From NCBI GenBank assembly GCA_007376145.1, contig VMFP01000004.1, forward strand, positions 70,988-134,987: a stretch of 64,000 nt of DNA, in the 5' to 3' direction. This document shows positions 3,403-37,992 of this stretch, one piece after another. Position numbers and translations under genes: made by a program. Source of the DNA: Parcubacteria group bacterium Gr01-1014_38. Lineage in GTDB: Bacteria; Patescibacteriota; Andersenbacteria; UBA10190; CAIZMI01. The first letter of the stretch is position 1. Every line of letters begins with the position of its first letter. The notes under the pieces are model-generated. The model saw nothing but the letters and a program-made list of their open reading frames with translations. It was not told the DNA's origin and did not search any database.

Positions 3403-4155
3403 CTAGTGGCGTACCGTTTCCCTTCCCCGCACAGCATCTCGAACGGGCATGCGGAGCGGTAGAGCTGCCTCACGCTGCGCGCGCCCGAGCGTTTCGAGAC
3501 GAAGGCGAACAAGGTATGCCAAATTCTCCCATCCGTGACGGAAGGGCCGGAGTGTGCTTTCTCCACGTCGAAGAGCGTACGGAATATGCGTTTCCCCAAA
3601 TGCGCCGCCGGCAAGTACCACCTTCAGTTTGAATTCTTCCGAAAACGGCATGCTGGGCTGTGTGGGACGAATGACATCCAACAATTCCCGACGAAACACC
3701 CACATACCGGATTGCGTGTCTTGCACGCGCGCCCCAAAAAGAACGCGCGCAGCGCCGGTCAGAAGATGATTCCCGAGTCTGCGGATCCGTGGCATTGCCT
3801 TTCCCTGCAAGGGAAACCTGGAACCGGAAAGACAATCAAGATTTCGATCGAGAAACTCGTTCACAAGGCGCGGCGTGTGTTCTATAGGATATTGTCCATC
3901 ACCATCCATGGTGACAAGAATGTTCGCTCTCGCAGCACGGAATCCTGCTTGATACGCGCGCCCATACCCCGGCTCTTTCTCAAACACGACATGCGCTCCA
4001 TGCGCTCGCGCAATTTCCGCGGTTTGATCTGTCGAATTGTTGTCGACAACAATCACTTCATCCACCGAAGACGGCACCCGCGAAAAGAGACTTTCCAACC
4101 CCCGCTCTTCGTTGTGGCAGGGGATGACAATGCCGATCGTGTTCCCGCGGATCAC
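3403..4155 (-). CDS. GT2 glycosyltransferase, polyprenol-phosphate sugar synthase type (Dpm1/GtrB/ArnC-like)
   Basis: N-terminus IGIVIPCHNEE...VIVVDNNSTD...MDGDGQYP carries the GT-A DxD and DGD motifs. Length is 250 aa. Confidence 0.8.
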   Translation of the reverse strand: MIRGNTIGIVIPCHNEERGLESLFSRVPSSVDEVIVVDNNSTDQTAEIARAHGAHVVFEKEPGYGRAYQAGFRAARANILVTMDGDGQYPIEHTPRLVNEFLDRNLDCLSGSRFPLQGKAMPRIRRLGNHLLTGAARVLFGARVQDTQSGMWVFRRELLDVIRPTQPSMPFSEEFKLKVVLAGGAFGETHIPYALRRGESTLRPFRHGWENLAYLVRLRLETLGRAQREAALPLRMPVRDAVRGRETVRH

Positions 4156-4280
4156 GGTGGCACTCTATCGTATTTCCCAAATTCTCAAAAGCAGAAGTTT
4201 ACGTCGCGGCGTGCACGCGGTCAAGGCAAGCGCGTTCCGCGTGCGCAAGAAGACGAGTAAACCCTGATCCCTGATCCGAG

Positions 4281-4309
4281 TTGACTGCCGAAAAGAGACA
4301 CCGTAGGGT
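4281..4309 (+). promoter_or_regulatory. candidate sigma70-like promoter upstream of methyltransferase 4448
   Basis: TTGACT, a 17-nt spacer, then TAGGGT, in the divergent intergenic region. A tandem CCTGATC CCTGATC repeat sits just upstream. Confidence 0.2.
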
Positions 4310-4447
4310 ACAGGATACGTTCTTATGCCGTCGCCGAGTGTACTCCAGCGACCGAACCTTCTGGCATGCCGAGGTTGAGAGAGGCGGCTGTTCCGGCGGA
4401 CGCAGATACTCGAAAGTTGTAACCATTTTGGAAGAAATCAAGGAGAC

Positions 4448-5207
4448 GATGGGTGCGACATCTGCGATGACCCGGAAGCAGACCGCCGTACTGTACGACG
4501 ACCTTTTTGATCGCTTTGATGAAGGGGCATTCGCCTTCGCGGTAAAGGAATCAGAACGGTATTACGCCCTTCCGGACGTTCGAGGAAAGCGCTGCCTGGA
4601 TGTGGAGGGTGGTGCAGGAGCCTTCATCTCTCGTCTCTTCCAGGCGGGCGCTCTCGAAGTGCACGGGGTGGATATCGGCGAAAAAAACTGTGTAAGCGTC
4701 CTTCACTGGAATAAACCATGGAAGGATCGGCTCGTCGTGAAGCAGGGCTCGGTAGAGTCCTTGGAGTATCCCGACGGGTTTTTCGACTTCGTGCACAGTG
4801 GCGGTGTCGTCCATCACCTTGTGCAGCCGGAGCAAGGATTCGAAGAACTCGCGCGTGTCACGAAACCGGGCGGGCTCACGGTCATCGGCGTGTATGGTCG
4901 TGGCGGGCTCATGCCATTCACCATTTCGGTTCTCCGACGCATCGCCTCTCTTCTTCCCTACTCGCTGGTGTCACGTGTCGTCTCCTGGTTTTTCTCGAAT
5001 CCGTACAGTCAATATCTTGTGTTGGACTTTCTCTACGTGCCTATTGTGCACCGGTACCGCGAAGAAGACATCCGACGATGGTATGAAGATGCGGGATACA
5101 CAGACATCACGCGTTCGAGACTTCACGCGCGATACACGTATGGATCCCTCTCCGCCCACCTCTTCCATGGAGAGGGATACATCACCCTCCAAGGAAGAAA
5201 GCGTTAG
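4448..5207 (+). CDS. class I SAM-dependent methyltransferase
   Basis: Motif I KRCLDVEGGAGAFISRLFQAG. The start at 4448 is preceded by AAGGAG spaced 6 nt upstream. The listed ORF (4281) is extended on its 5' side. Confidence 0.6.
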
Positions 5208-5240
5208 CGGCGTTCCCGCGCACGAAACCTTACGCGCACC

Positions 5241-5789
5241 TTACTCGAACGGCGTGATCTCTGATAAGAGCGGCTGATGCGTATCTTTTTCCGAAACAAT
5301 GAACGGCTCGTTTCCCCACTGAATCCCTAGACTTGGGTCGTTAAAACGCAGGCCGCCTTCACACTCTGGCTTGTAGGGAGCGGTCAGTTTGTACTGCACG
5401 AGCGTGTCGTCTTCTAATGACAGAAACCCGTGAGCGAATCCTTCGGGCATCCATACTATTTTCTTGTTGCTGCCCAGAAGGAATGCGTCCCACTGACCAT
5501 ACGTCGGCGAGGATTTTCTTATATCCACCACTACGTCTTTTATGCTTCCTTGTATGACGCGCACGAGTTTTCCCTGGGCGTACGGTGGTTTTTGGAAGTG
5601 AAGCCCCCGGATGACATTCTTGTGCGATACTGACTCATCATCCTGAACAAACTGCGACGGTATTCCTATGCGTTCAAAATACTCTTTGTTGTAGCTTTCC
5701 AGGAAGTATCCCCGTTCATCCGCATAACTCCGTATGTCAATCTGAAACACTCCCTTCAGCCGTGATTCTTTCACCGAAAACTTTTCTTT
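5241..5789 (-). CDS. rmlC: dTDP-4-keto-6-deoxyhexose 3,5-(or 5-)epimerase, RmlC-family cupin
   Basis: ...VIRGLHFQKPPYAQGKLVRVIQGSIKDVVVDIR...WMPEGFAHGF... are hallmark RmlC motifs. The gene lies in the lower-GC block. Confidence 0.75.
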   Translation of the reverse strand, partial: KEKFSVKESRLKGVFQIDIRSYADERGYFLESYNKEYFERIGIPSQFVQDDESVSHKNVIRGLHFQKPPYAQGKLVRVIQGSIKDVVVDIRKSSPTYGQWDAFLLGSNKKIVWMPEGFAHGFLSLEDDTLVQYKLTAPYKPECEGGLRFNDPSLGIQWGNEPFIVSEKDTHQPLLSEITPFE

Positions 5790-5811
5790 CATACACAAAT
5801 GTCCCTGAATG

Positions 5812-6780
5812 TTACTCTACTTCCTTGAGCAGCACGCGTCTTCCCTCTCTGGCTGACACCCGTAAACATTCCATGACCCGTGCCTGCGATACGAGTCCGT
5901 TGTACTCCAAGGGCTTGCCGATCTTCTCAATAAAGTTTCTGAATGCTAGGTCAAACTGGTTTGCGCTTTCCGCATCAATCACTGCTTCGTTCCCTTGGGT
6001 GCTCACGGTGATGTGAGGCCGTACCTCTGGAGGTATGCCGTACGCTCTCCCGACATGAATTTTTCCCTTTGTTCCGATGACCGAATACGTACTCTGGTAG
6101 ACATGGTTGAACCCGAAGAATCCCGTTGCCGTTCTTCCCCTGTCAAATTCCATCAGGAAACTCCCTTCGGTATCGACGTGCGCGTCCCCGCTGAACAGCG
6201 TGCAGGTCGCGGCTCTTGGCTCTCCTGAAAGCATTTTTCTTGCCATGAATACGAGGTACCCTCCCGCGTCATTGAGTGCCCCTCCCCCCAGCTCACTCTT
6301 GTACCGTATGTTATCACCCGCGAATGGGGAGTAGCAGTAGAAAGAACTGAAATGTCTTGTTTCTCCGATGTCTCCGTTTCTCGTCACGGACACAACCTTT
6401 TCGTGCTGGGGGTGGTGGTCGACCACGTAATTTTCGACCAGCAACACGCCGTGTTCCCTGCATGTCTTCACCATGCTTTTCACTTCTTCGTATGATCCCG
6501 CCAACGCTTTCTCGCACAGCACATGCTTCCCTGCCCTTGCCGCTTTCTCGACCCATTCTTTGTGCAGTCCAACGGGGAGGGGAATATACACTGCGTCAAT
6601 ATCATTCCTTTGGAGAAGCGAATCATAACTCTCATGATCGCACCCATATTCTTGAGCCCACTCCTTCCCTTTTTGGCCTCGGCTCGCCAGGGCGACAAGA
6701 CTTGCGGTTCTTTGTATTGAACCAATCGCATACTTCCTTGCTATACTTGCGCACCCGAGGACGCCGAATCGTACACGCAT
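5812..6780 (-). CDS. Gfo/Idh/MocA-family NAD(P) sugar oxidoreductase (candidate NDP-hexose 3-ketoreductase, KijD10/TylC1-like)
   Basis: N-terminal Rossmann segment MRVRFGVLGCASIARKYAIGS. The family call rests on the overall Gfo/Idh/MocA pattern. The gene sits between a C-methyltransferase and an epimerase in the cassette. Confidence 0.7.
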   Translation of the reverse strand: MRVRFGVLGCASIARKYAIGSIQRTASLVALASRGQKGKEWAQEYGCDHESYDSLLQRNDIDAVYIPLPVGLHKEWVEKAARAGKHVLCEKALAGSYEEVKSMVKTCREHGVLLVENYVVDHHPQHEKVVSVTRNGDIGETRHFSSFYCYSPFAGDNIRYKSELGGGALNDAGGYLVFMARKMLSGEPRAATCTLFSGDAHVDTEGSFLMEFDRGRTATGFFGFNHVYQSTYSVIGTKGKIHVGRAYGIPPEVRPHITVSTQGNEAVIDAESANQFDLAFRNFIEKIGKPLEYNGLVSQARVMECLRVSAREGRRVLLKEVE

Positions 6781-6782
6781 TT

Positions 6783-8051
6783 TTACACTGGAACCCTCTC
6801 GATGACTCTGGGTTTTGGAATAGCGATGAGGTATTTGCCCCCCGCCTCGCTGAAATGTTTTGTCTTCCGCATGATTTCGTCAGCAAAATTCCAGGCCAGG
6901 ATGAGTAGGTAATTCGGCGGCTCTTCTGCCAGACGATCGCTGGAGACGATCGGAATGTTTGTTCCCGCATAGATGAGGCCGTGCTTGTCCTTCGTGTCAT
7001 CGACAATGTACGGCAGGTCTTGTTCCGTCAGGCGGCAATAGTTCACGAATGTGTTTCCTTTCACCGGCGCTCCGTAGCCTGCAATTGTTTCTCCGCGAGC
7101 GTGTACACGGTCAATGCATTCTCGTGTTTCCTTGCGTATCACTGCGGCATTTCGTTCCAGTTGTAGATAGCTTTCGGGATTGAGCAGCCCGTTTTCTCTC
7201 TCCTGCCGCAGATATCCTTCTACGACATCTTCCTGTACGGGCATGCGTTTGTTGCTGCTCTTCACTGCCGTTACTCGGATGCTTCCGCCATGGATGTTTG
7301 CGAATTCTTCCACGTTGCTGATGTTCATATCATGCATCGAGAACAGCCGTTCAAGCGGACTGACCAGGTAGTACGAGTGGTGTTCATGGAGGATGGTGTC
7401 GAATTCTTTGTGTTGGAGAAGATTCTTTGCGTAGCTTGCTTCCATCACGAAGACTCCATCATCGGACATGGCTTTTTTCGCTCCTTCAATGAACCCGTGA
7501 ACGCCATCGATGTGAGCGAACACATTTGTTGCGGTCACCACATCCATTGTTCCTTTTCTGCGCACGACTTCTTCCGCACTCTGGCTGTCCCAGAATGCGC
7601 AGATGGTCTCTATTCCTTCAGCTCTCGCTTTCTCAACGAGTTTTTCCGCAGGATCAACTCCGATGCACTCATAGCCCTGCTTCCTGAATTCTTTAAGCAG
7701 GCATCCGTCATTACTTGCGATGTCCAGGACTTTCAGTCCTTCCTGTCCGCCGAATAATTCTTTGAGGCTTCCCGCCATCCGGTAACAATGTTCCTGGAAC
7801 GTTTTCGATACGGATGAATTATAGGGATAGCTTGATGAGAACAAGTATGCTGGCTTAACGATGACTCCCAGCTGTGACAGCCCGCAGTCTCTACACAGGT
7901 TCACTGATAAAGGGATTTTTTTGTCGTGCTCCTCTCCCGGCTTCTTAAAAGCCGTTGCGACAGGCATCTCACCAAAGTCGATGTACTTCAGAAGATTCCG
8001 GGAATCACAAATTCTGCAGCTCGTCCGCTCCCAATACATGTTCGCATTCAT
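6783..8051 (-). CDS. NDP-hexose C-methyltransferase (TylC3/NovU/CloU family) with N-terminal Cys4 Zn ribbon
   Basis: The N-terminus has CRICDS...CRDCG. The SAM motif is LKVLDIASNDGCLL and the C-terminal domain ends ...YLLILAWNFADEIM. It is a paralog of the ORF at 61993-63282. The start may be 8051 or 8039. Confidence 0.75.
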   Translation of the reverse strand: MNANMYWERTSCRICDSRNLLKYIDFGEMPVATAFKKPGEEHDKKIPLSVNLCRDCGLSQLGVIVKPAYLFSSSYPYNSSVSKTFQEHCYRMAGSLKELFGGQEGLKVLDIASNDGCLLKEFRKQGYECIGVDPAEKLVEKARAEGIETICAFWDSQSAEEVVRRKGTMDVVTATNVFAHIDGVHGFIEGAKKAMSDDGVFVMEASYAKNLLQHKEFDTILHEHHSYYLVSPLERLFSMHDMNISNVEEFANIHGGSIRVTAVKSSNKRMPVQEDVVEGYLRQERENGLLNPESYLQLERNAAVIRKETRECIDRVHARGETIAGYGAPVKGNTFVNYCRLTEQDLPYIVDDTKDKHGLIYAGTNIPIVSSDRLAEEPPNYLLILAWNFADEIMRKTKHFSEAGGKYLIAIPKPRVIERVPV

Positions 8052-8062
8052 AGAGAACTTCT

Positions 8063-8084
8063 GTATGCTAGGATCCTAGCATAC
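8063..8084. promoter_or_regulatory. perfect 22-bp palindrome GTATGCTAGGATCCTAGCATAC between divergent start codons (candidate operator or RBS-sequestering hairpin)
   Basis: The reverse complement is identical to the sequence itself. It ends one nucleotide before the ATG of the 2,3-dehydratase (8085) and lies 12-24 nt from the divergent C-methyltransferase start. Confidence 0.4.
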
Positions 8085-9518
8085 ATGAGAGCCGACCTTT
8101 CTGCATCACCACACCTGGCAGCGACGGAACCGAGGGGAAAAACGAGGGACGGATTCCTTGGTTCCGAACTCACCCTCGATAATAGATTCCAGACGCTTGC
8201 TGATTTTCTTCGGTGGTTCGAATCGCGGAAGAAGGCTCACCCGTTCGTGGTACGGCGGGTTCCTCTTAACACGCTTGACCAGTGGCGTTTTGATTCGCGG
8301 ATGACATGTTTCGGCCATGCATCTGGGAAATTCTTCGCGATTAAGGGCTTGAGAGTTTCCCTGAACGGTGAGGAGTGGGACCAGCCAATTATTGATCAGC
8401 CGGAAATCGGCATTCTGGGAATCATCACCAAGAAATTTGATGGCGTACGATATTTCCTGATGCAGGCGAAGATGGAGCCGGGCAACATCAACTTGATGCA
8501 GCTTTCCCCCACTGTTCAGGCCACGCGGAGCAATTACACTCGGGTTCATCAGGGCTCACTCCCAAAATATCTTGAGTACTTCCTTGACGGGTCAACATCG
8601 CGGGTTCTTGTCGATCACTTGCAGACGGAGCACGGACGCCGGTTTTTGAGAAAGAGGAATAGAAACATGATTGTGGAGGTAGAGAAGGATATTCCGGTGT
8701 ATGAGGACTTCCGGTGGCTGACGCTTGGGGAACTGAAGCAGCTTGTCCGCATGGATAACTTCGTCAACATTGACTCACGGTCTGTTCTTTCCTGCATCAA
8801 CTTCCTTGATGAGAAGCGTGATACGGAAGCAATTGATGACATCTCCGATGGGTTCAAACGGGATATATTCGTTTCCATGATGCAGAGCAACGGTTCGCTC
8901 CACAATATGAATGACATCATCCACTGGTTTACGGACATGAAAGCAAGGACGGAACTCACTACGACAGAAATTCCGCTGAACGCACTGCGTGACTGGACCG
9001 TTACGGACACGGATATCCGCCATCACGCCGATCGGTTCTTCACAGTGATCGGCGTTTCCGTGGTGGCCGGTAACCGGGAAGTTGGCAGTTGGATGCAACC
9101 GCTCATCCAGTGCCATTCGCACGGACTCATCGGATTCCTTGTGAAAAAAATCAACGGCACTGCGCATGTTCTTGTCCAAGCCAAGGCGGAACCTGGAAGC
9201 TTCACGGTTGTTGAATTGGTTCCCACCGTTGAATGTGATGATACCGAGGAGAGAATAAAGCGCAGGTCCGCTCCGCCATTTGCAGAATTTCTTCTGAACG
9301 CTCCCTCGGACCGTCGGAGATTTGATGCATTCCAGAGTGAAGAGGGCGGCCGGTTCTATCACTGTCAAAACCGCTGCATGATCGTTGAGACTGATGAAGG
9401 ATTCCCTATTCCCCCGAATTACACATGGATGACGTTAAACCAAATCATGTCCCTCATCCCGCACAATTACTTCAACATTGATGCGCGGAACCTTCTCACC
9501 TACCTCCGCCTGCAATAG
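8085..9518 (+). CDS. NDP-4-keto-6-deoxyhexose 2,3-dehydratase (EvaA/TylX3/OleV family, duplicated Nudix-like halves)
   Basis: 478 aa from MRADLS. It has two repeated halves, each with ...FLMQAKMEPGN... / ...VLVQAKAEPGS... motifs typical of sugar 2,3-dehydratases. The listed ORF (7926) is extended 5' into the divergent gene. Confidence 0.75.
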   Translation: MRADLSASPHLAATEPRGKTRDGFLGSELTLDNRFQTLADFLRWFESRKKAHPFVVRRVPLNTLDQWRFDSRMTCFGHASGKFFAIKGLRVSLNGEEWDQPIIDQPEIGILGIITKKFDGVRYFLMQAKMEPGNINLMQLSPTVQATRSNYTRVHQGSLPKYLEYFLDGSTSRVLVDHLQTEHGRRFLRKRNRNMIVEVEKDIPVYEDFRWLTLGELKQLVRMDNFVNIDSRSVLSCINFLDEKRDTEAIDDISDGFKRDIFVSMMQSNGSLHNMNDIIHWFTDMKARTELTTTEIPLNALRDWTVTDTDIRHHADRFFTVIGVSVVAGNREVGSWMQPLIQCHSHGLIGFLVKKINGTAHVLVQAKAEPGSFTVVELVPTVECDDTEERIKRRSAPPFAEFLLNAPSDRRRFDAFQSEEGGRFYHCQNRCMIVETDEGFPIPPNYTWMTLNQIMSLIPHNYFNIDARNLLTYLRLQ

Positions 9519-9527
9519 AAACCGAAA

Positions 9528-10352
9528 CTACGGTGCGTGATCTGGTTTCCGAAAGACTTTGCTCGGAAATCCCAGTTTTGCAAGCAAGAACGCTGCCAGC
9601 ACCCCGAGGGTCTGGACGGTGTACAGAATACTGTTTTTCAAACTCGCACCTCGCTTTTTGCCCGTGTACTGCACTTCGACGGGCACCTGACTCACCGCAC
9701 AGCGATGAAACGCTGCCTGCGCTAATAATTGCGCACTGAAGCTAAAGTCATCCGCGTTTGCGTGGTAGTTCACCTTTTCCAGCAGTGATCTGGCATACAC
9801 ACGAAATCCCTGATGATAATCACGAATCGGGAGACGAAGAACAATTGTGCAGAGAGCATCCAGCAGCATGACGACGGGGACTTTCCAGATGAACATGCCG
9901 CTCTTGATCGGATCGTGACCATCAGAAAATCTGTTCCCCAAGACGAATTCTGCTCCCCGCTCGATTTCTTGAAGGGCCGGCGCAATTGCAGAGGTTTTAT
10001 ATTCGCCGTCCGGATGAATATCCACGATGATGTCCGCTCCCTGCTCCAACGCGATATTCAATGCGCGCTTCAGATTCCCGCCGTATCCGCGGTTCACCTC
10101 ATTCCGATACGATTCAATGCCGAGCTCTTGAGCAAGGGCAAACGTCCGATCTTTCGATGCGTCGTCCACCAAGATGACGCGGTGGAAGAGTTCTTTTGGG
10201 AACACTCTCCAGAATTCCGCGAGCGCCTTTTCTGCATTGTAGGCAATGAAGATCGCGAAGAGCTTCGGCTGACCGCGTACAGACGCCCGTGCAGAAGCTC
10301 GCATAGTCTGGAGAGACGCGCGCGATGTTCCCGCGTGTTCCGCAACAGACAT
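9528..10352 (-). CDS. GT2 glycosyltransferase (polyprenol-phosphate sugar synthase-like) with C-terminal TM segment
   Basis: ...PKLFAIFIAYNAEKAL...VILVDDASKDRT...DIHPDGEY is a GT-A fold signature. A hydrophobic segment sits at the C-terminus. The alternative start is 10304. Confidence 0.7.
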   Translation of the reverse strand: MSVAEHAGTSRASLQTMRASARASVRGQPKLFAIFIAYNAEKALAEFWRVFPKELFHRVILVDDASKDRTFALAQELGIESYRNEVNRGYGGNLKRALNIALEQGADIIVDIHPDGEYKTSAIAPALQEIERGAEFVLGNRFSDGHDPIKSGMFIWKVPVVMLLDALCTIVLRLPIRDYHQGFRVYARSLLEKVNYHANADDFSFSAQLLAQAAFHRCAVSQVPVEVQYTGKKRGASLKNSILYTVQTLGVLAAFLLAKLGFPSKVFRKPDHAP

Positions 10353-22512: not shown

Positions 22513-22551
22513 GCTGCCCACACACTACGGGAATCCCTCCCCAATGCACAA

Positions 22552-24159: not shown

Positions 24160-25344
24160 TCAAAGAGCCGCTCGACCCGCGGCGGCAGGGAGAGCATCCA
24201 CTGGCACACCGCAGGCCGCGTACGCCGTGCGAACGACGTCGGCGACGTCTTCTTCGGTCATCCCCGCCCAGAGCGGCAAACGGACGAGCGTTTCTCCCAC
24301 CGTCGTGGTCACCGGGAGCGCCCCGTGCGACCGGCTGAACCTCTGGCCCGCCGGTGACGCGTGGAGCGGAACGTAATGGAAGACCGCGTAGATGCCACGC
24401 GCATTTAGGTGGGCGAGGAACGCATCCCGAGCCTCGTGCGTGGGGAGCAGCAGAGAGTACAGGTGAGCGTTGTGGACGCAGTGGGGCGGGACCACGGGCC
24501 GCCGGACCCTTCCCGCCGCCTCGAGGGGCGCCAGTGCAGCATGGTACCGCTCCCAGATGGCACGGCGGCGCGCGGTCACGGACTCGGCGCCTTCGAGCTG
24601 CGCGGCGAGGAACGCCGCCGTGACTTCGCTCGGCTGGAAGGAGGAACCGAGATCGACCCACGTGTACTTCTCCGTCTCCCCTCGCGCAAACGCACTCCGG
24701 TTGGTCCCCTTCTGCCAGAGGGTGTCGGCTCGCTCCCGGTAGCGGTCGTCATTGATGAGGAGCGCCCCGCCTTCACCCGAGGTGATGTTCTTCGTCTCGT
24801 GGAAGCTTAGCGCGGCGAGATGCCCGATGCTCCCGAGTTCGCGCCCCCGATACGTGGCCAACATCCCGTGCGCCGCATCCTCGATGACGACCAGTCGGTG
24901 TCGCCGTGCGATGTCTACGATCGCGTCCATCTCACATCCGATTCCCCCATAGTGGACGACGACGATCGCCCGGGTGCGCGCGCTGATCGCGGCCTCGATT
25001 CTTGTTTCGTCAAGATTGAGGGTGTCCGGACGAATATCCACGAACACCGGGGTTGCACCCCGCACGGCGAAGGCGTTCGCCGTCGAGACGAACGTGAACG
25101 AGGGCATGATGACTTCGTCGCCTGGCTGCAGATCCAGGAGGAGAGCGCAGAACTCGAGCGCCGCGGTACAGGAGTGGGTGAGCAGAACTTTCCCGCAGCC
25201 AAGATGCTCCTTAAGCCACGCGTGACACCGCTGCGTGAACATCCCGTTGCCTGACAGTTGACCGCGATCGAAGGCCTCCCTGATGTAGTCGAACTCTTTT
25301 CCGGAGAGCGACGGGCGGTTGAAGGGAATCCGGTACGGAGACAT
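24160..25344 (-). CDS. DegT/DnrJ/EryC1/StrS-family PLP aminotransferase, closest in motif pattern to dTDP-4-keto-6-deoxyhexose 4-aminotransferase (WecE/RffA type)
   Basis: From MSPYRIPFNRP: ...GKEFDYIREAFDRGQLSGNGMFTQRCHAWLKEHLGCGKVLLTHSCTAALE...FSFHETKNITSGEGGALLIND tracks the E. coli WecE sequence closely as I recall it. The Schiff-base Lys is retained. Confidence 0.75.
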   Translation of the reverse strand: MSPYRIPFNRPSLSGKEFDYIREAFDRGQLSGNGMFTQRCHAWLKEHLGCGKVLLTHSCTAALEFCALLLDLQPGDEVIMPSFTFVSTANAFAVRGATPVFVDIRPDTLNLDETRIEAAISARTRAIVVVHYGGIGCEMDAIVDIARRHRLVVIEDAAHGMLATYRGRELGSIGHLAALSFHETKNITSGEGGALLINDDRYRERADTLWQKGTNRSAFARGETEKYTWVDLGSSFQPSEVTAAFLAAQLEGAESVTARRRAIWERYHAALAPLEAAGRVRRPVVPPHCVHNAHLYSLLLPTHEARDAFLAHLNARGIYAVFHYVPLHASPAGQRFSRSHGALPVTTTVGETLVRLPLWAGMTEEDVADVVRTAYAACGVPVDALPAAAGRAAL

Positions 25345-25348
25345 AGAA

Positions 25349-26272
25349 TCACCCGAGCCGAACCGTGATGCTCTTGATGAGGTCGGCAGCGCAGGCGTCG
25401 GGTCCACCCTCGAGCTGAACACGCCGGAGAAGGATCACGCCGTCACCGGTCAGCACCCAGATCCCCTCGCCGGGCCGGACCTCTACCACGCGACCAGGGA
25501 TTCGGCCCGCGTACCGCCGCGGCGTAGGGAGCGGCTGCGCCGACCACACCGTGAGCCGCTTTCCCTCAAACCACGTGTATGCGCCGGTGTACGGTCTCGT
25601 GACGGCACGAATACAATTCCAGATGACGCTGGTCGGCTCGCTCCACACGATCCGGTTGTCCTCCGGTGTCCGTTTGCAGGTATACGTCGCGCGGGAGTGG
25701 TCCTGCGATCGCCGCGGCGCCCGACCCTCCCACAGAAGCGCGAGGTTTCGCTCAAGAAGCTGTACGTACCCCTCCGTAATGCGGGGCAACACATCGGCAA
25801 TCGTCTCCTCGAGCCGGAGAGGAGTTTCCCACTGGTCGATGATGTCCCCGGCGTCAACCTCCTCCGCGACATAAATCAGCGACACGCCGCCACGCGTCTC
25901 ACCGTTGACCAGAGCCCAGACCGTGGGCGAGAAGCCACGATAGGCGGGAAGAAGGGAATCATGAAAGACGACGGACGCGCGGCGGACGGCGCGGAGCAGC
26001 GGAAAAGAAACCAGATACCGCCAATGGACCATCAAAACGAGGTCAATCGGGTTCTGCCAGATTTCCGCCGCCTTGGGAGAGGAAACATTCTTGGTCTCGA
26101 AGAACCGCGCGCCGTGCGCCTCCGAGAACCGACGGATCTCCTCGAGGTAGGGCGGCTCCCACGGTTCCTCGCGGAAACTACAGACCGTGAGATCGTCGGC
26201 CGGACAGAGTTCACGCAACCGCCGGAGAACGACGAGACCGCGCGGCGTCGCGCAGAGGAGAACGATGGACAC
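25349..26272 (-). CDS. formyltransferase (Fmt/ArnA-N-terminal-like); candidate sugar N-formyltransferase
   Basis: VVFHDSLLPAYRGFSPTVWALVNGE is the Formyl_trans_N SLLP..RG motif. It is immediately downstream of folD/glyA and upstream of the 4-aminotransferase. Confidence 0.75.
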   Translation of the reverse strand: MSIVLLCATPRGLVVLRRLRELCPADDLTVCSFREEPWEPPYLEEIRRFSEAHGARFFETKNVSSPKAAEIWQNPIDLVLMVHWRYLVSFPLLRAVRRASVVFHDSLLPAYRGFSPTVWALVNGETRGGVSLIYVAEEVDAGDIIDQWETPLRLEETIADVLPRITEGYVQLLERNLALLWEGRAPRRSQDHSRATYTCKRTPEDNRIVWSEPTSVIWNCIRAVTRPYTGAYTWFEGKRLTVWSAQPLPTPRRYAGRIPGRVVEVRPGEGIWVLTGDGVILLRRVQLEGGPDACAADLIKSITVRLG

Positions 26273-26274
26273 GG

Positions 26275-27504
26275 TTACCGTGGGGAAGTTCGTGAGGGCG
26301 CGGAGGACGCCGACCCGACAACCAGTTGGGGGAAACGCTGCATCGTCTCCGACATGTCGCGGACGCTCTCGAGGTCCAGCCGCTGCTTCGCTGCAGTATA
26401 GAGCCGTTCATGAAAAGAGACCACGGCGTCAAGATCAAAGTAGCGGCGGATACCATCTCGCCCAGCGCGGCCGATTCGCTCCATCTGGGCGCGGTCTGCG
26501 CACAGCCGCCGGATGGCAGAACCCAGTGCGCGAACGTCTCTTGGGGGGACGAGGAGACCGTTCACGCCGTCGCGAAGAACTTCCTTCCGCATGTCGACGC
26601 GGAATCCGACGAGCGGCAAGCCTGCCGCGAGCGCATGGATGACCGTCATGTTGATTCCTTCGTTGACGGACGTACGGAGCACCAGGTCGGCACGACGGAA
26701 GAGCCGGTCGAGATCCCGGCGGTAGCCGGCGAAGAGGACGGCGTGGCCCACACGGCACGCCCGGACGAGCGAGCGAAGCCGGCGTTCCTCCGGACCCTCG
26801 CCGACGAGAAGGAGACGAGCGTGCGGCCATTCCGCAAGGACATGCTGCCAGGCTTGGATGGCATACTGGTGGCCCTTGTCGACATGGAGCCGCCCGATGG
26901 AGAGCGCGACGGGGTACGCGCCCGCGAGATCAAACGGTGGAAGCGTGAACTCTGGGTCCCTCCGGAGCGCGAACATCGGCGCCAGATCCCCCACGATCTC
27001 GACCGCTTTCACTTTCCTCGACGCAATCCCCGTCCCCTCCAGCTCCCACGGAGAAAAGGTGAGATAGAGCGTGACCCAGCGTTGGAGGAGGACGAGGGCA
27101 CGGAGGTACCACGACGCCGACTGCGCTCGCGTCGCCACGATCGTGTGTACGAACGGAACGCGGGCGAGACGCGCCCCGAGCGTTCCCAGAAGGAAGGAGA
27201 CGGGGAGGAAGGCGTGAACGATATCTGGCTGCTCACGCCGAAGAAGCAGACAGAGCCGAAGGAGAACGGGAAAGACTCGGAGAAGGCTTCTCCGGGGACT
27301 CAACGTCACGACCCGCAGTCCGCACTCCGGCAACATGGTCTCATACGCCCCGCCCGCGTGAAGCGCCACCACCGCGATCCGTACACCGCGGGAAACGAGA
27401 CACCTGCCGAGCTGCGCGATGTACTCCTGGGCACCACCAGCAACGAGCGTATCAATGAGGATCACGACTCGTGGATTCTGGCGCATGTTGTTTAGGACCC
27501 TCAC
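26275..27504 (-). CDS. GT4-family (GT-B) glycosyltransferase
   Basis: VVILIDTLVAGGAQEY..., then C-terminal ...SVNEGINMTVIHALAAGLPLVGFRVD... Confidence 0.7.
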   Translation of the reverse strand: MRVLNNMRQNPRVVILIDTLVAGGAQEYIAQLGRCLVSRGVRIAVVALHAGGAYETMLPECGLRVVTLSPRRSLLRVFPVLLRLCLLLRREQPDIVHAFLPVSFLLGTLGARLARVPFVHTIVATRAQSASWYLRALVLLQRWVTLYLTFSPWELEGTGIASRKVKAVEIVGDLAPMFALRRDPEFTLPPFDLAGAYPVALSIGRLHVDKGHQYAIQAWQHVLAEWPHARLLLVGEGPEERRLRSLVRACRVGHAVLFAGYRRDLDRLFRRADLVLRTSVNEGINMTVIHALAAGLPLVGFRVDMRKEVLRDGVNGLLVPPRDVRALGSAIRRLCADRAQMERIGRAGRDGIRRYFDLDAVVSFHERLYTAAKQRLDLESVRDMSETMQRFPQLVVGSASSAPSRTSPR

Positions 27505-27510
27505 GCGAGG

Positions 27511-28470
27511 TCAGTCTCGCGGTGCACGCAGTGTGATCGGCGGTGTGTTCGTGCTCGACGTCTCGCGCACGGGACGGTTGGCCCCCGGCACGAGAGGAGA
27601 AGACGGAGCTCCTGCTTCGGCCTGTTCCGCTGCCTGCACGACGTTTTCCAGGAGCAGACAGACGGTCATGGGACCGACGCCGCCCGGGACAGGCGTCAGC
27701 GCACCGGCGATCGGCCGAACCGACACTTCGTCGACGTCACCGTGCCACCCCTCGGCGGTGTGGTGCGCTCCGGCATCAACCACGATTGCTCCCGGACGGA
27801 CATGCGCGGCCGTGATGCCGCGGGGCATTCCTGTAGCAGCGACGAGCACGTCAGCGGACCGCGTGAGCGAGGCCAAGTCGCGCGTGCCCCGGTGGCAGAC
27901 GGTCACCGTTGCGTTCGCGTCGGGACGTTTCTGCAGCAGAAGAAGCGCCAGCGGCCTGCCGACGAGCCGCCCCCGTCCCACGACGACGACGTGCCGACCG
28001 GCGATGGTGATGCCGCTCCGGAGCAGGAGCTGATGGATTCCCGCCGGCGTCGGGGGGGGGAAGCGCGGTACGCCAAGCGCGAGGAGACCGAGGTTCTCCG
28101 GATGGAGACAGTCGACGTCCTTCAACGGCGCGATGTGCGCGAGGAGATCCGCCTCCGCATGTCCAGCCGGGAGGGGAAGCTGAAGGACGATCCCGTGGAT
28201 GTCTGGTGCGGTGCTCCACGCCGTCAGGAGATCGCGGAGCTCATCGTCGGAGGTCGCGGCTCCTCGCTGCTCGACAATCGTTCGAATGGCGAGGCGGCGG
28301 GCGGCATATTCCTTGTTCTTCACAAAGACGTGGATGACGGGATCCGTTCCCACCACGAGAAGCGCCAGCGTCGGTATCACGCCGCGCCGGACGAGCCCGT
28401 CGACGCGCGGAGCCAACTCCGCGTGGAGCGCGCGCGCAACCTGCCGGCCATCGAGGAGACGGGCGGACAT
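27511..28470 (-). CDS. folD: bifunctional methylene-THF dehydrogenase / methenyl-THF cyclohydrolase
   Basis: From MSARLLDG: ...KNKEYAARRLAI...GIVLQLPLP...VVVVGRGRLVGRPLALLL...PVPGGVGPMTV. It has a Pro-rich C-terminal tail. It contains a G8/C8 run at 28052-28059. Confidence 0.8.
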   Translation of the reverse strand: MSARLLDGRQVARALHAELAPRVDGLVRRGVIPTLALLVVGTDPVIHVFVKNKEYAARRLAIRTIVEQRGAATSDDELRDLLTAWSTAPDIHGIVLQLPLPAGHAEADLLAHIAPLKDVDCLHPENLGLLALGVPRFPPPTPAGIHQLLLRSGITIAGRHVVVVGRGRLVGRPLALLLLQKRPDANATVTVCHRGTRDLASLTRSADVLVAATGMPRGITAAHVRPGAIVVDAGAHHTAEGWHGDVDEVSVRPIAGALTPVPGGVGPMTVCLLLENVVQAAEQAEAGAPSSPLVPGANRPVRETSSTNTPPITLRAPRD

Positions 28471-28472
28471 GC

Positions 28473-29795
28473 TCAAGGTGGCGGGAACGCGCGGGCAAAC
28501 GCGCGGACCTCCTCCCGAAGGCGCGTGAGACGATCGGTGTCCGAGCGATGCAGGAGCGTCTCTGCAATCCAATCTGCGATTCTCCGCATCGCGTCCTCTC
28601 GCATGCCGCGGGTCGTGAGCGGCGGCGTACCCAGGCGCAGTCCGGAAGGATCCTTGGGCGGCCGCGGGTCATCGGGAATCGTGTTTTTATTCGCGGTGAT
28701 GCCGACCAAGTCGAGGGCGGCTTCTGCCTCGGTCCCCGTCAGACCGTGCGGACGCAGGTCAAGAAGGAGAAGGTGCGTGTCTGTTCCGCCGGTGACGAGC
28801 CGGAAGCCGTGCTCCGCGAGACGCTCGGCAAGGGACCGGGCGTTGGCAACAACCTGCCGCGCATAGACGGAGAACTCCGGCTGCAGCGCTTCCTGAAAGC
28901 ACACGGCTTTCGCCGCCGTGACGTGGTCGTGCGGCCCCCCCTGGATTCCGGGGAACACGGCGCGGGCGATCGCCGCGCTGTGCTCCCGCCGGCTGACAAT
29001 GACGCCGCCGCGCGGCCCGCGAAGCGTCTTGTGCGTCGTGAACGTCACGACCGGCGTGAAGGGAAATGGCGAGGGGTGAGCACCACCGACGATGAGGCCA
29101 GCGACGTGGGCGATATCCGCGACGTGGAGAGCACCGACCTCGTCGGCAATGGACTGCAGGGCGCGGAAGTCGATCGCACGCGGATAGGCACTTGCCCCGG
29201 AGAACAGGATGGCGGGACGGACGCGCCGCGCCAGCGCGCGGATCGCGTCGAAGTCGAGGTGCTCGGTCGTCGGATCGAGTGCGTACTGATGCGCCTCATA
29301 GGCGATGCCGGAAAACGCCACCCGATGCCCGTGGGAGAGGTGACCACCGTGTGTCAGCTGAAGCCCAAGGAGGCGACTCCCAAGCGGCGCGAGGCCCAAA
29401 AGAACCGCAATGTTTGCGGACGTGCCGGAATACGGCTGGACATTCGCATCCCATTCCAAGCACTCCTTTCCACGGAGGAACAAACGAAGCGCGCGGGCGC
29501 AGGCAAGATCTTCGACCGCGTCGATCACTTCCTGCCCCCCGTAGTAGCGCTGGCCAGAGTACCCCTCCGAATACTTATTCGTGAGAACCGACGACAGCGC
29601 CGCCCGTACCGCCGGCGATGCGTAGTTTTCTGAAGGGATGAGTTCAAGCCCATCACGCTGGCGCTCTTCCTCCGCGATCAGAAGTCTCTCGACCTCCGGA
29701 TCGGTCCGGACGAGAGGGTCTGCCGACACCTCGTGCAGGGCCGCGCGGGCATCACGCGGGCCTACCGGCTCTCCGAACGTGGCTGCGGAAATCAT
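28473..29795 (-). CDS. glyA: serine hydroxymethyltransferase
   Basis: ...LELIPSENYASPAVRAALSSVLTNKYSEGY...TTHKTLRGPRGG... has the PLP-lysine motif. Confidence 0.9.
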   Translation of the reverse strand: MISAATFGEPVGPRDARAALHEVSADPLVRTDPEVERLLIAEEERQRDGLELIPSENYASPAVRAALSSVLTNKYSEGYSGQRYYGGQEVIDAVEDLACARALRLFLRGKECLEWDANVQPYSGTSANIAVLLGLAPLGSRLLGLQLTHGGHLSHGHRVAFSGIAYEAHQYALDPTTEHLDFDAIRALARRVRPAILFSGASAYPRAIDFRALQSIADEVGALHVADIAHVAGLIVGGAHPSPFPFTPVVTFTTHKTLRGPRGGVIVSRREHSAAIARAVFPGIQGGPHDHVTAAKAVCFQEALQPEFSVYARQVVANARSLAERLAEHGFRLVTGGTDTHLLLLDLRPHGLTGTEAEAALDLVGITANKNTIPDDPRPPKDPSGLRLGTPPLTTRGMREDAMRRIADWIAETLLHRSDTDRLTRLREEVRAFARAFPPP

Positions 29796-34489: not shown

Positions 34490-36988
34490 GTGCGCATGAC
34501 ACCCGAACCTTCCTTCCCATGGCCGCGCATATCCGTGGCGGTCATCGTCGCCGTGGCGGTGCTCCTCGGCGTCGTCGCGCTTCGTCTTTCCCTCGTGCAG
34601 ACGGTCCTCAAAACGACGGCGCCGCACACGGACACGGATATCGAGCGCTTCGGTGGCTTGAAGACAGTCGGCCAGTCGTTTGTAAGCCCTTCAGACGGAC
34701 TCGCGGAAATTTCGTTCCGGCTCCGGTCGCCGCTTCCCGTACGATGGTTCCCGCTCTTCTTCCACCTTCGACACGGCCGCTTTGCCACGCGTGACCTCCG
34801 GACCGTCGTGCTCTTGCGGACGGACGTTGAACCGGACGGGGTCGTCACGACGCGTTTCGCCCCGCTCACGAAAAGCAGAGGGAAACCATACGCGTTCGTG
34901 CTTGACGCGCCGTACGCCCCGAGCGGGACATTCGCCGCCTCCCGGCAAATCGACGGATCACTTTACGGGGACGGAACACTGTTCCGGGGAACCGCCGTCC
35001 GCCAGGGAGATTTGGAATTTTCCCTGGGCACGCAATCCGCACTTGGGCGTGTGCTCTGGACCCGTTTCCTTGCGTGGGCAGCGGAGGTGCGCCGCGTCCC
35101 TGGGTTGATGGTGGCACTGTTGCTTGGCAGTACCGTGACGTTGCTTCTGACGATGGCGACAGTGTTTGGCGGCATCGTGACGCTCCTTGCGCTCTGGGCT
35201 CCTTGGTGGACGCAACGCCTCCACCGCACACGCGCGTGGCTTCTTCCGGTCGCACTGGGCACGCTCGCTGTTCTCCACATCGCGCTTCATCTCCCCTTCG
35301 CCCTCTCCTATCCGATTTCGAACGATGAGGGGGCATACCTCATGGACATCCAAAACCTCCGCGTTGGCGCATGGCCGTTTCTCCACACACTCGCGAAGGG
35401 ACCGCTGTTTCTTACGCTGTTCGCGCCGGTTGCATTCAGCTTTCCCGAAGCACTCCTCCCGGCGCGCTTGTTCATTGCCGTGACTTCGGCGTTGATCATT
35501 GTGCCGCTCTACCTCCTCGGCGTCCGCCACAGCGACAGAACTGCCGGGCTTTTCGCCGCTGCGCTGTGGGCGTTTTCTCCCGCCGTCATCGGGCAGACGA
35601 CACACGTCCTTCTCCAACCGCTCGCAGTGCTCCTGGTCGCACTGGCGCTTCTTACCATTTCTCGACAGCGCGATGACACTCCTTGGAGAACGAGATGGGC
35701 GTATGGCGGGGGCGCGCTGCTCGCCGCCGCCTACCTGACCCGTGTCTCTTCCGTCGCGTTCCTCCCCAGTGCGCTTCTCCTCCCGTTCGTGATGCATCCC
35801 CGGCGCGCGGCTTGGCGCACGGCTGCCCGCACTGGTCTCGGTTTCGCACTGACCCTTCTCGTCGCCGCCCTGCTTTTTCTCCCCATCCTCGGTGCGGTCC
35901 GAACGGCCATCACATTCAACGTGGAGGCGGTGCTCATCGGCCAGGCCCGAAACGCGGGTGGGCCCGACGTCGCCGCATTCTGGCCACCACGTGAACTCCT
36001 CGAGCGAATCAGTGCCTATGGAAGCACCCTGTTCCGGACGGGACTCCCGGTCGTGATACTCTGGTGGGCATTTCTCTTAAGTCAGGTCCGCACCGTACTC
36101 CGCCTGCCCGGATGGACCGCGGCGCTGGCATTTCTTGGTGGAGCGCTTCCCCTCCTTTTGGAACTCCAGCGCAACACATACTTCTTCACGGACGACAGCA
36201 ACGCGCCATTCGCGGCACTCGCTCGCATCGCCGCACCGGCGTTCGTCCTTCTGGTGGCCGCACGCCTCCTGACCCTACGCCGCGAGTCGGGAGACCCCGC
36301 CACACTGCGCCGCGCGTGGCGGGGTCTCCTCCTTGGGGGTGGAAGCTGGCTGGCGCTGACCGTCGTCTATGCATATTTCGGGCGTTTCCGGCAGCACTAC
36401 CACATGGAATTTCTTCTTCCGTATATCCTCGGTGCAGCACTCTTCCTTCGGGAGATTCTTGTGGCCGAGAGCGGGCAGGCGCGGGCGCGCTGGCGCACGT
36501 TCGCCCGCCGGGTGCTTGGGCCGCTCGTCGCCGGGGCGCTCGCCGCCGCGACCTTTCTCCTCTACACGCCGACGAAAACGCAATCACACACGGGATCGAT
36601 CGCTGTCGCGACCGCCCACCGCGTCGCGGACATCATCGCATCCGTTTCGGGACCGAGGGAAGAAATCCTCACCGCCCAGGGAATCTTTCCCTTCCTCGCT
36701 GGCCGTTTTCTCCCGTTCGGCGCCTCGCACCCCGGCTGGTACCTCGAAGAACGCGTTGGAACAGTGACGCCCGCCATGCGCCGTCTGTTCCTGCCTGACA
36801 AATCTGTCTTGAGGACGTATGTTCGCGACAAGCCGATCCGCCTCGTCGCGATCGACCGCCGGACGTGGGAAGTCTACTTCCAATTCGACGCAGACATGCG
36901 TGCGCTCGTCGCGGAGTACTTCAAGCTCCTCGCGGAAGTTCCGAATCCGTCCGAGGAACAACCGGTGGAAATTTGGATCCGAAAATGA
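34490..36988 (+). CDS. GT-C fold membrane glycosyltransferase, ArnT/PMT_2-like
   Basis: 832 aa. It has YPISNDEGAYLMDIQN (DE motif) and many TM helices. Confidence 0.6.
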   Translation: MRMTPEPSFPWPRISVAVIVAVAVLLGVVALRLSLVQTVLKTTAPHTDTDIERFGGLKTVGQSFVSPSDGLAEISFRLRSPLPVRWFPLFFHLRHGRFATRDLRTVVLLRTDVEPDGVVTTRFAPLTKSRGKPYAFVLDAPYAPSGTFAASRQIDGSLYGDGTLFRGTAVRQGDLEFSLGTQSALGRVLWTRFLAWAAEVRRVPGLMVALLLGSTVTLLLTMATVFGGIVTLLALWAPWWTQRLHRTRAWLLPVALGTLAVLHIALHLPFALSYPISNDEGAYLMDIQNLRVGAWPFLHTLAKGPLFLTLFAPVAFSFPEALLPARLFIAVTSALIIVPLYLLGVRHSDRTAGLFAAALWAFSPAVIGQTTHVLLQPLAVLLVALALLTISRQRDDTPWRTRWAYGGGALLAAAYLTRVSSVAFLPSALLLPFVMHPRRAAWRTAARTGLGFALTLLVAALLFLPILGAVRTAITFNVEAVLIGQARNAGGPDVAAFWPPRELLERISAYGSTLFRTGLPVVILWWAFLLSQVRTVLRLPGWTAALAFLGGALPLLLELQRNTYFFTDDSNAPFAALARIAAPAFVLLVAARLLTLRRESGDPATLRRAWRGLLLGGGSWLALTVVYAYFGRFRQHYHMEFLLPYILGAALFLREILVAESGQARARWRTFARRVLGPLVAGALAAATFLLYTPTKTQSHTGSIAVATAHRVADIIASVSGPREEILTAQGIFPFLAGRFLPFGASHPGWYLEERVGTVTPAMRRLFLPDKSVLRTYVRDKPIRLVAIDRRTWEVYFQFDADMRALVAEYFKLLAEVPNPSEEQPVEIWIRK

Positions 36989-36992
36989 AGCT

Positions 36993-37100
36993 CCACGGGC
37001 AAGCCCGTGGTATCCCCCGCATACGGTCGCGCCCGAAGGCTTAAGCCCGTGGAGCGGAATCCCGCTCCAGAAGACCATTCATCCACGGGTAAACCCGTGG
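36993..37100. repeat. three tandem stem-loops (REP-like palindromic units) in the gap between convergent genes; probable bidirectional terminator
   Basis: CCACGGGC-AA-GCCCGTGG (36993-37010), TGGAGCGG-AATC-CCGCTCCA (37050-37069) and CCACGGGT-AA-ACCCGTGG (37083-37100). Units 1 and 3 are near-identical. A further ATCCACG/CGTGGAT outer arm lies around unit 3. Confidence 0.5.
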
Positions 37101-37125
37101 TCTTCTGGGGCGTGGATAAACCGCG

Positions 37126-37992
37126 CTAGCCCCGGCTGCGCACGATGAGATCGGCGATCAGACCCATGAGTCCAATTTGAATTCCGACGACGACAAGCAC
37201 GATGCTGGCATCGGAGATGTTTCGCTCGAGCGTGAGGGTGCGAGCCATGTTGGCGATGCCGAGTCCCAAAAACAGGAGGCTGGGGACCGCGAAGAATCTT
37301 AAGGGGCGAAAATACGTCACGATGCGAACGATGAGCGTCAAGAAGTTCGGAAACTCCTGGAACAGACCGCGTCGAAGGGTGATGGTGGATTTCCCGACGC
37401 GCGGCGCGTAGACGACGGGCACCCACCGAACGCCGAGTTTGTTTGTCAGCGCGGCGAGCGTCGCCGTCGTCGTGAACGAGAAGCCGTCGGGAAACAGATG
37501 GAAGAATCGCTCAACGAATTCTCGTCGCATCACGCGCATGCCGGAGTTGAGATCCGGAATGCGCCGACCGACGAGAAACGCCGCCAGTGCGGAAACGATC
37601 ACCTTTCCGGGACGCCGCAGCAGCGGAAACGCCGCGACGTTCCCAACGCGAACGCCGACGACCATCTCGACACCGTCGGTCAACGTCTCCAGGAGGCGTG
37701 GGAAGTCATCCACCGGATACGTACCGTCCGAGTCAATGATGCCAAGGAGGTCGCCGCGCGCAGCGCGGATACCGGTTTTCAGCGCCGCCCCATACCCGCG
37801 GTTCTCCGGGTGGCGGACGACCATCACCGCCGAATGCCGACGAAGAATTTCTGGAGTGTTGTCGGTAGAACCGTCGTCCACGACAAGAATCTCCGACGGC
37901 ATGGAAAGCCTCTCGCGCATACGGAGAAGCCCCGCCAGACTTTTCTCGAGTCCTTGGGCCTCGTTGTAGGTCGGCACGATAATGCTGAGCAC
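37126..37992 (-). CDS. GT2 polyprenol-phosphate glycosyltransferase (GtrB/CsbB-like) with C-terminal TM helices
   Basis: LSIIVPTYNEAQG...ILVVDDGSTDNT...IDSDGTYP, plus two C-terminal hydrophobic helices. Confidence 0.8.
   Translation of the reverse strand: MLSIIVPTYNEAQGLEKSLAGLLRMRERLSMPSEILVVDDGSTDNTPEILRRHSAVMVVRHPENRGYGAALKTGIRAARGDLLGIIDSDGTYPVDDFPRLLETLTDGVEMVVGVRVGNVAAFPLLRRPGKVIVSALAAFLVGRRIPDLNSGMRVMRREFVERFFHLFPDGFSFTTTATLAALTNKLGVRWVPVVYAPRVGKSTITLRRGLFQEFPNFLTLIVRIVTYFRPLRFFAVPSLLFLGLGIANMARTLTLERNISDASIVLVVVGIQIGLMGLIADLIVRSRG

Follow-up and report, generated by a model that had tools for sequence, protein, structure and literature searches.

The locus described here raises the question of what a long perfect palindrome does in the narrow gap between two divergent deoxysugar genes. 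In Parcubacteria group bacterium Gr01-1014_38, a 24-bp perfect palindrome, TGTATGCTAGGATCCTAGCATACA, lies at 8062-8085 between a gene for a sugar C-methyltransferase and one for an NDP-hexose 2,3-dehydratase (Table 1; all positions are those of the window, the whole stretch of 64,000 nucleotides that was analysed). Its arms are TGTATGCTAGGA and TCCTAGCATACA, symmetric in 24 of 24 bp about a centre at 8073/8074, which is 11 bp from the ATG of the dehydratase and 22 bp from that of the C-methyltransferase, and its final A doubles as the first base of the dehydratase ATG (8085-8087). The sequence of 8020-8090 reads ...CCCAATACATGTTCGCATTCAT/AGAGAACTTCTGTATGCTAGGATCCTAGCATAC/ATGAGA. The palindrome has GGATCC, and within it GATC, at its centre and contains two CTAG words. 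A first-pass annotation had described a perfect palindrome of 22 bp, GTATGCTAGGATCCTAGCATAC (8063-8084), of which there is one copy in the window. The palindrome is present as described, but its symmetry runs one base further on each side, and the distances reported for the 22-mer need correction: it does not end 1 nt before the dehydratase ATG but abuts it (0 nt), and it lies 11 nt, not 12 nt, from the C-methyltransferase ATG (reverse strand, 8051-8049). The short reading frame within the palindrome is probably incidental.

Table 1. Positions of genes and sequence elements at the divergent deoxysugar locus
Feature	Position	Strand	Remarks
Sugar C-methyltransferase gene, 422 aa	6783-8051	-	PF08421 and PF08484
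NDP-hexose 2,3-dehydratase gene, 477 aa	8085-9518	+	PF03559, E 7e-147
33-bp spacer between the divergent start codons	8052-8084		42% GC
TATGCTA (TANNNTA)	8064-8070	+ and -	TATGCT 8064-8069 on plus, TAGCAT 8070-8065 on minus; at the spacer centre
TAGCATA (mirror TANNNTA)	8077-8083	+ and -	TAGCAT on plus, TATGCT on minus
Central TAGGATCCTA	8069-8078	+ and -	TAGGAT on both strands; 4/6 match to TATAAT including A2 and T6
TTCGCA, best -35-like hexamer (4/6)	8041-8046	+	17 bp upstream of TATGCT; within the C-methyltransferase coding sequence
Imperfect inverted repeat CATAGAGAA-c-TTCTGTATG	8049-8067		One mismatch; runs across the C-methyltransferase start codon into the left palindrome arm
Mini-ORF ATG CTA GGA TCC TAG	8065-8079	+	Same mini-ORF on the minus strand at 8082-8068

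The 33-bp gap is real, because the N-termini of homologues and a survey of start codons back both starts. The N-terminus of the C-methyltransferase is MNANMYWERTSCRIC, in which MNANMYWER aligns with MSTERYWER of the closest relative and with METSEIYWER and MEDSNLYWER of others. The N-terminus of the dehydratase is variable among homologues; the next in-frame ATG, GTG or TTG after 8085 is already inside the conserved domain, and the upstream candidates, TTG at 7956 and GTG at 7926, would carry the gene at least 96 nt into the methyltransferase gene. Wrong start codons are rejected on this evidence, which also disposes of the possibility raised in the first-pass annotation that the true starts lie further apart. 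The gene identities, start codons and gap length given there are upheld by Pfam matches, N-terminal alignments and independent gene calls, the last of these made on two other assemblies with the same starts for both genes. Proteins identical to both are on record for Parcubacteria group bacterium Gr01-1014_38.

The C-methyltransferase gene is the first of a leftward unit with genes for a GFO-type ketoreductase (5812-6780) and a 3,5-epimerase (5241-5792), and the dehydratase gene is a lone plus-strand gene among minus-strand neighbours, the C-methyltransferase gene upstream and a GT2 gene (9528-10352) downstream. By the established TylX3/C1/C3/K pathway, this is the gene set for a mycarose-like, dTDP-linked 2,6-dideoxy-3-C-methyl hexose. 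The region 5241-9518 comprises the 2,3-dehydratase, ketoreductase, C-methyltransferase and epimerase genes with no adjacent 4-ketoreductase gene; two relatives, L005 and L025, unlike the window, have an RmlD-like gene. A mycarose-like sugar pathway is unusual in a CPR bacterium.

The window as a whole is a cell-envelope glycan-biosynthesis island, with GT2 and GT4 transferases, many methyltransferases and PMT_2/YfhO-like membrane proteins, at least six of which are very large. It also encodes a carbamoyltransferase, AsnB, DegT aminotransferases, a formyltransferase with FolD and SHMT, and MurJ. At 24160-29795, GT4 genes are grouped with those for SHMT, FolD (THF dehydrogenase/cyclohydrolase), the formyltransferase and a DegT aminotransferase, which would suit a pathway that makes an N-formylated amino sugar and supplies its own one-carbon units. 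A second paralogue of the sugar C-methyltransferase (PF08421/PF08484) is found at 61993-63282, and a 16-nt imperfect inverted repeat (61987-62002/62042-62057) straddles its start codon. The deoxysugar block (4000-10000) has a GC content of about 51%, against 58-67% elsewhere in the window, and this dip, taken with the mostly 30-36% GC of the hosts of homologues, suggests that the block was acquired horizontally.

The 24-mer is the longest perfect palindrome in the 64-kb window, the next longest having 18 bp. A length of 24 bp was reached in three of 200 dinucleotide shuffles of the window, and palindromes with arms of at least 12 nt are expected 0.007-0.011 times per 64 kb (analytical estimate, Markov orders 0-3). 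Markov order 3 makes the observed word some 80-fold less probable than order 0 does, because it consists of avoided words: CTAG occurs 19 times in the window against 227 expected, and two of the 19 copies are inside the palindrome. The palindrome is not a chance occurrence by these null models, which leave out a one-step mutational origin. Of the CTAG copies, several serve as stop codons or fall in intergenic DNA (which makes up 5.6% of the window); TATA and TTAA are also depleted, about 0.3-fold, and GATC is enriched 1.5-fold. The 18-bp perfect palindrome, ATTGTTGTCGACAACAAT at 4036-4053, lies in the 5' part of a minus-strand GT2 gene (3403-4155), where the gene caller of one assembly picked an opposite-strand ORF (3586-4260) instead; a palindrome this long is expected by chance, since about half of the shuffles contain one of at least 18 bp.

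The sequence is identical in the ENA assembly ERZ27284378 (contig name prefix k139) and the Logan assembly SRR8863434, both of which are 100% identical to the window over 12-19 kb. If the prefix k139 is taken as the k-mer size, it would be far above 24 bp. The palindrome is flanked by unique genes whose adjacency is kept in relatives. A cloning or assembly artefact around the BamHI site is ruled out by the environmental source, the identical assemblies and the syntenic gene adjacency.

Two separate sigma-70 promoters do not fit into 33 bp, which bears out the remark in the first-pass annotation that there is no room for conventional promoters. The spacer geometry therefore forces the palindrome over the core promoter (-10), the +1 site or the 5' leader of both genes. 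The same annotation concluded that the element must govern or include both start regions; the overlap is indeed forced by the gap, but other tight divergent pairs, at 22522-22551 (30-bp gap) and 37982-37992 (overlapping starts), have no palindrome, so tight spacing alone demands no such element. Perhaps this genome usually has its promoters within neighbouring coding sequences, or perhaps some starts are wrongly assigned. Most genes in the window have no Shine-Dalgarno motif, and its absence from both genes flanking the palindrome is therefore uninformative.

A consensus scan found no -35/-10 pair reaching 9 of 12 in 7700-8450. The 9-of-12 matches elsewhere include two on the minus strand, a sigma-70-like TTGACC-17-TAAACT (4224-4196) upstream of a GT2 gene and TTGACC-18-GATATT (8595-8566) inside the dehydratase gene. 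Promoter-like matches are depleted in the window overall, with four found against 8.2 in shuffles, and the organism appears to use canonical promoters. Another arrangement is offered by symmetric bidirectional promoters, which are widespread, are enriched in horizontally acquired DNA and have divergent starts 7-25 bp apart, most often 18 (10.1101/2020.01.31.928960; PMC12825309). In their TANNNTA form, found in many bacteria, the -10 hexamers of opposite strands overlap so that A2 of one pairs with T6 of the other and the starts are 18 bp apart (10.1101/2020.01.31.928960). Overlapping hexamers of this kind, the mark of a symmetric bidirectional promoter, are present in the palindrome. Each strand has three TANNNT hexamers within the 24 bp (TATGCT, TAGGAT and TAGCAT), the window average being 3.6 per kb per strand. 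The full TANNNTA word occurs 21 times in 64 kb (0.33 per kb); six copies are intergenic, and four of these six sit in the divergent spacers 4156-4337 and 8052-8084 of the low-GC block. The former spacer, between a leftward GT2 gene and a rightward methyltransferase gene, has its two copies at 4166 and 4304.

With the usual distance of 7 nt from hexamer to start and the TANNNTA geometry (10.1101/2020.01.31.928960), TATGCTA would set starts at about 8076 on the plus strand and 8058 on the minus strand, with leaders of about 9 and 7 nt. TAGCATA is predicted to give a minus-strand start at about 8071; its plus-strand start, at about 8089, would be unproductive. The central TAGGAT pair could act as an alternative -10 pair, with starts predicted at about 8081 (+) and 8066 (-). 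On the plus strand TTCGCA is a weak candidate for the -35 element, below the 9-of-12 threshold of the scan; the minus strand has nothing comparable, and the -35 hexamers for its candidate starts are very poor.

On these grounds, the palindrome is tentatively read as an element that acts at the DNA level, which may well be a shared compact bidirectional promoter core and, if so, probably also the site of a dimeric repressor, an assignment held with somewhat less than even confidence. RNA polymerase would start in both directions from the left TANNNTA word at the spacer centre, at positions about 18 bp apart, with its -35 contacts inside the neighbouring coding sequences. Both mRNAs would then have leaders of 7-9 nt that include only part of the palindrome and form no hairpin, so that transcripts starting inside it would avoid a severe structure at the start codon. 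A symmetric protein on the 24-bp dyad would cover the -10/+1 regions of both promoters and shut the two deoxysugar units together. Since a protein bound within 11-22 bp of both start codons would sit on -10/+1 or the early leader, the expected effect is repression rather than activation. This reading is favoured by a palindrome that is far beyond chance and built of words that the genome avoids, by the concentration of TANNNTA in divergent spacers and the position of the deoxysugar block in a GC dip, by signs that the organism uses canonical promoters, by the precedent of QacR IR1 (PMC3617543), and, by analogy, by look-alike half-sites that lie just upstream of small repressor-type genes in two unrelated sequences, L011 and L012. 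Against it, no -35/-10 pair around the spacer reaches 9 of 12, the agreement of the -10-like hexamers with TATAAT is limited to 4 of 6 positions, other tight divergent pairs in the window do without such a palindrome, and a bidirectional promoter needs about 7 bp of symmetry, so that 24 perfect bp are left unexplained by a promoter alone.

The look-alikes came from a search of public collections with GTATGCTAG-N4-CTAGCATAC, which gave one match in 185,579 genomes, 13 in JGI metagenomes and none in viral contigs, where the exact palindrome core is absent as well. By a rough estimate from the 18 specified bases, this number is about the chance level. None of the matches in genomes or metagenomes is near sugar genes or has a GGATCC centre; they adjoin RHH, XRE and TonB genes in unrelated bacteria, and several are real palindromes upstream of them. 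In L011 (4195-4404, a Solirubrobacterales MAG) and L012 (5523-5726, a soil metagenome contig), the same half-sites are part of longer palindromes, about 32-36 bp, each with a small ribbon-helix-helix-like gene (motif QFNVYLP) 5 nt downstream and, next to that, a gene that by eye looks glyoxalase/VOC-like at its N-terminus. These sites look like autoregulated leaderless operator-promoters. In L012 the start codon follows the right half-site TAGCAT by 7 nt, and TTGACC precedes that half-site by 17 bp, so that TAGCAT looks like the -10 of a leaderless gene; this is an analogy to the palindrome, not homology.

A partner for the palindrome was sought nearer to hand. The half-site search advocated in the first-pass annotation, run on the window and a further 10 kb of contig (74 kb) with one or two mismatches allowed, gave nothing above chance, only matches inside genes. 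No ORF of the 64-kb window has a DNA-binding domain, and no regulator gene was found there; the gene table of the further 10 kb leftward lists no DNA-binding family among its Pfam families. The RHH and XRE proteins from the look-alike loci have no relative in the window by tblastn, and a literature search found nothing on regulation in Gr01-1014_38. What the palindrome shares with operators is a dyad symmetry in the usual range of about 14-30 bp; a cognate regulator was not found in the 74 kb, and neither conservation nor a regulon was seen. The failure to find a regulator gene or a second site in 74 kb, and the absence of the palindrome from six homologous loci, count against a DNA-level element.

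In these six loci (L005, L008, L025, L027, L029 and L030) the divergent pair of C-methyltransferase and 2,3-dehydratase genes is kept, so the arrangement is old, and none of them has a comparable palindrome. Five of them (L005, L008/L009, L025/L026, L027/L028 and L029) encode proteins with 58-70% amino acid identity, in hosts of 30-36% GC, and have AT-rich spacers of 88-152 bp without a comparable inverted repeat. The closest relative, L030, has about 59% GC, a C-methyltransferase 79% identical and the same synteny as the window, in the order AsnB, PMT_2, GT2 and dehydratase, then divergently C-methyltransferase, ketoreductase and epimerase; its dehydratase matches the 76%-identical P0002 over the aligned N-terminal stretch. 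The L030 spacer has no inverted repeat at all, and an alignment of the two spacers in search of an ancestral arm was no better than shuffles. The dehydratase start in L030 (7892-8000) is ambiguous, the called ATG giving a 30-bp gap and the ATG that matches P0002 one of 108 bp; with the called starts, the SD-like motifs GAGAGG and GGAAG, both absent in the window, precede the two genes. The protein collection holds no member closer than 79%. The six fetched loci thus speak against a conserved operator. The first-pass annotation, whose reasoning is sound, would have taken absence from homologous loci as refutation; with all six of six lacking a comparable palindrome its operator idea is weakened, not refuted. 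Both mechanisms put forward there, an operator and an mRNA hairpin that occludes ribosome binding, are still tenable.

Lineage specificity also bears on the possibility that the palindrome has no dedicated function and is a young mutational product, made for example by intrastrand template switching, or left when a deletion or rearrangement shortened the ancestral spacer, and tolerated in non-coding DNA. Such an origin is possible, if on balance doubtful. It agrees with a single-copy (74 kb), lineage-specific palindrome for which no partner was found, with a perfection that old functional operators usually lack, with a spacer that resists alignment with its counterpart in the closest relative, and with neighbouring divergent pairs that work across equally small gaps. 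Public data hold no close strain variants (cluster size 1) that could show purifying selection. On the other hand, strongly avoided words, including two CTAG, placed exactly at two start codons make this a costly place for an accident, which would moreover have created the strongest start-codon structure in the window; the chance estimates leave template switching unmodelled. That structure is the starting point for an RNA-level explanation, in which both mRNAs start upstream in the opposite coding sequence and carry a 10-bp stem with a GAUC loop that throttles translation. In the dehydratase mRNA the 3' arm would end on the A of AUG and block 30S binding, and in the C-methyltransferase mRNA the modelled hairpin would end 10 nt before AUG; in a variant, translation would be conditional on temperature, a helicase or a protein. 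For the RNA hairpin the predicted energy is -13.1 kcal/mol (z = -4.5), a stability that none of 200 shuffles attained, and the dehydratase start (-25 to +15; -14.6 kcal/mol, 47% GC) is the most structured of the 43 ORF starts in the window. Full transcription of the palindrome would be unfavourable for dehydratase translation, especially where most genes lack a Shine-Dalgarno motif. No strong promoter match is found in or beside the spacer, and from the minus-strand match at 8595-8566 a transcript with a long leader could run into the C-methyltransferase gene, but promoters inside opposite genes would be required, and matches of that class are depleted here rather than enriched. Perfect Watson-Crick pairing, free of G-U pairs and closed by a loop that is itself palindromic, is seen more typically at DNA sites than in RNA structures, a constitutive block of -13 kcal/mol on an enzyme needed with its neighbours has no evident logic, and the element has neither homologues that would allow a covariation test nor an Rfam match, the covariance-model search giving only chance snoRNA matches with E above 2, none of them at the palindrome. 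Control at the RNA level is therefore judged unlikely.

Two further explanations have little to recommend them. As a structural or epigenetic switch, which is very improbable, the palindrome could be extruded as a cruciform by the negative supercoiling from two diverging polymerases, or methylation at the central GATC/GGATCC could gate protein binding; the single-stranded DNA hairpin is predicted at -8.2 kcal/mol per strand. It hardly comes into consideration that the palindrome is a site of recombination or part of a mobile element (tyrosine-recombinase core, REP/MITE remnant or inversion junction), or the cloning or assembly artefact dealt with above. The geometry of 9-bp arms around a 6-bp spacer (9+6+9) is compatible with recombinase core sites, and the dehydratase gene is the lone inverted gene among minus-strand genes. 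Yet there is no second copy at its other end or anywhere in the 74 kb, the inverted arrangement is ancient and common to all relatives, which lack the palindrome, and no recombinase or transposase was found in the window and no match in viral contigs; an artefact is disfavoured by identity in independent assemblies of environmental reads. The defining features of a terminator, a REP/MITE or a recombination site are missing. The terminator scan did not call the site, there is no T-run on either strand and the flanking genes diverge, and a single-copy palindrome (74 kb) is no dispersed repeat of the REP/MITE type. Elsewhere in the window, a GC-rich hairpin with perfect 14-nt arms (GGAGACCCCGCCAC...GTGGCGGGGTCTCC) lies at 36290-36329 inside a long ORF (34490-36988), and an inverted repeat with 15-nt arms at 37063-37112, between convergent gene ends at 36988 and 37126, is likely a bidirectional terminator.

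The palindrome is best regarded as a candidate for a compact bidirectional promoter/operator. If functional, it would join a short list of concrete cis-regulatory elements put forward for a bacterium of the Candidate Phyla Radiation, and would show how a spacer of only 33 bp can drive, and perhaps also silence, two units of a cell-surface deoxysugar pathway. If it were a switch, a mycarose-like surface sugar would be turned on and off (phase-variable) in a reduced-genome CPR bacterium with almost no classical regulators. Its general significance is limited by its being a single, unconserved site without a partner protein.

Several known systems can be set beside it. Template switching at quasi-palindromes, as known from the E. 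coli literature, makes perfect inverted repeats in one step, which are typically lineage-specific. It would explain the origin of the palindrome only, not its position at two start codons or its avoided words. Hairpins in 5' leaders that occlude the start codon or ribosome binding site are familiar as translational operators and RNA thermometers. Like the palindrome they have a stable stem that ends at the start codon, whereas the stem here, which would have to be transcribed as a whole, has no conserved family and no covariation. We know of no described arrangement in which two divergent mRNAs carry the same stem. Long palindromic repressor operators between divergent genes include tetO, bound by TetR, and bioO, bound by BirA (bioA-bioBFCD). 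Similarly, QacR IR1 is a long inverted-repeat operator on the transcription start between the divergent qacA and qacR (PMC3617543). In this type a dyad of 20-40 bp lies on -10/+1 of one or both divergent promoters and one bound protein controls both directions, as is proposed for the palindrome. The QacR, TetR and BirA operators are conserved in relatives and have known regulators, most often encoded by an adjacent gene or accompanied by further sites, whereas for the palindrome no regulator or second site was found in 74 kb and no conservation in six loci. Symmetric bidirectional promoters, described by Warman, Forrest, Grainger and colleagues (10.1101/2020.01.31.928960; PMC12825309), likewise serve divergent genes from one short symmetric region. 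They are pseudo-symmetric over about 7-12 bp, whereas the palindrome is perfect over 24 bp and has the -10 word twice; its -10-like hexamers are weak (4/6), and its starts are predicted. It shares with them the overlapping TANNNTA arrangement of -10-like hexamers, a start spacing of about 18 bp (predicted here) and a setting in compositionally odd DNA. The palindrome, found only in one uncultured lineage, belongs to a familiar class, that of palindromic control sites and symmetric bidirectional promoters.
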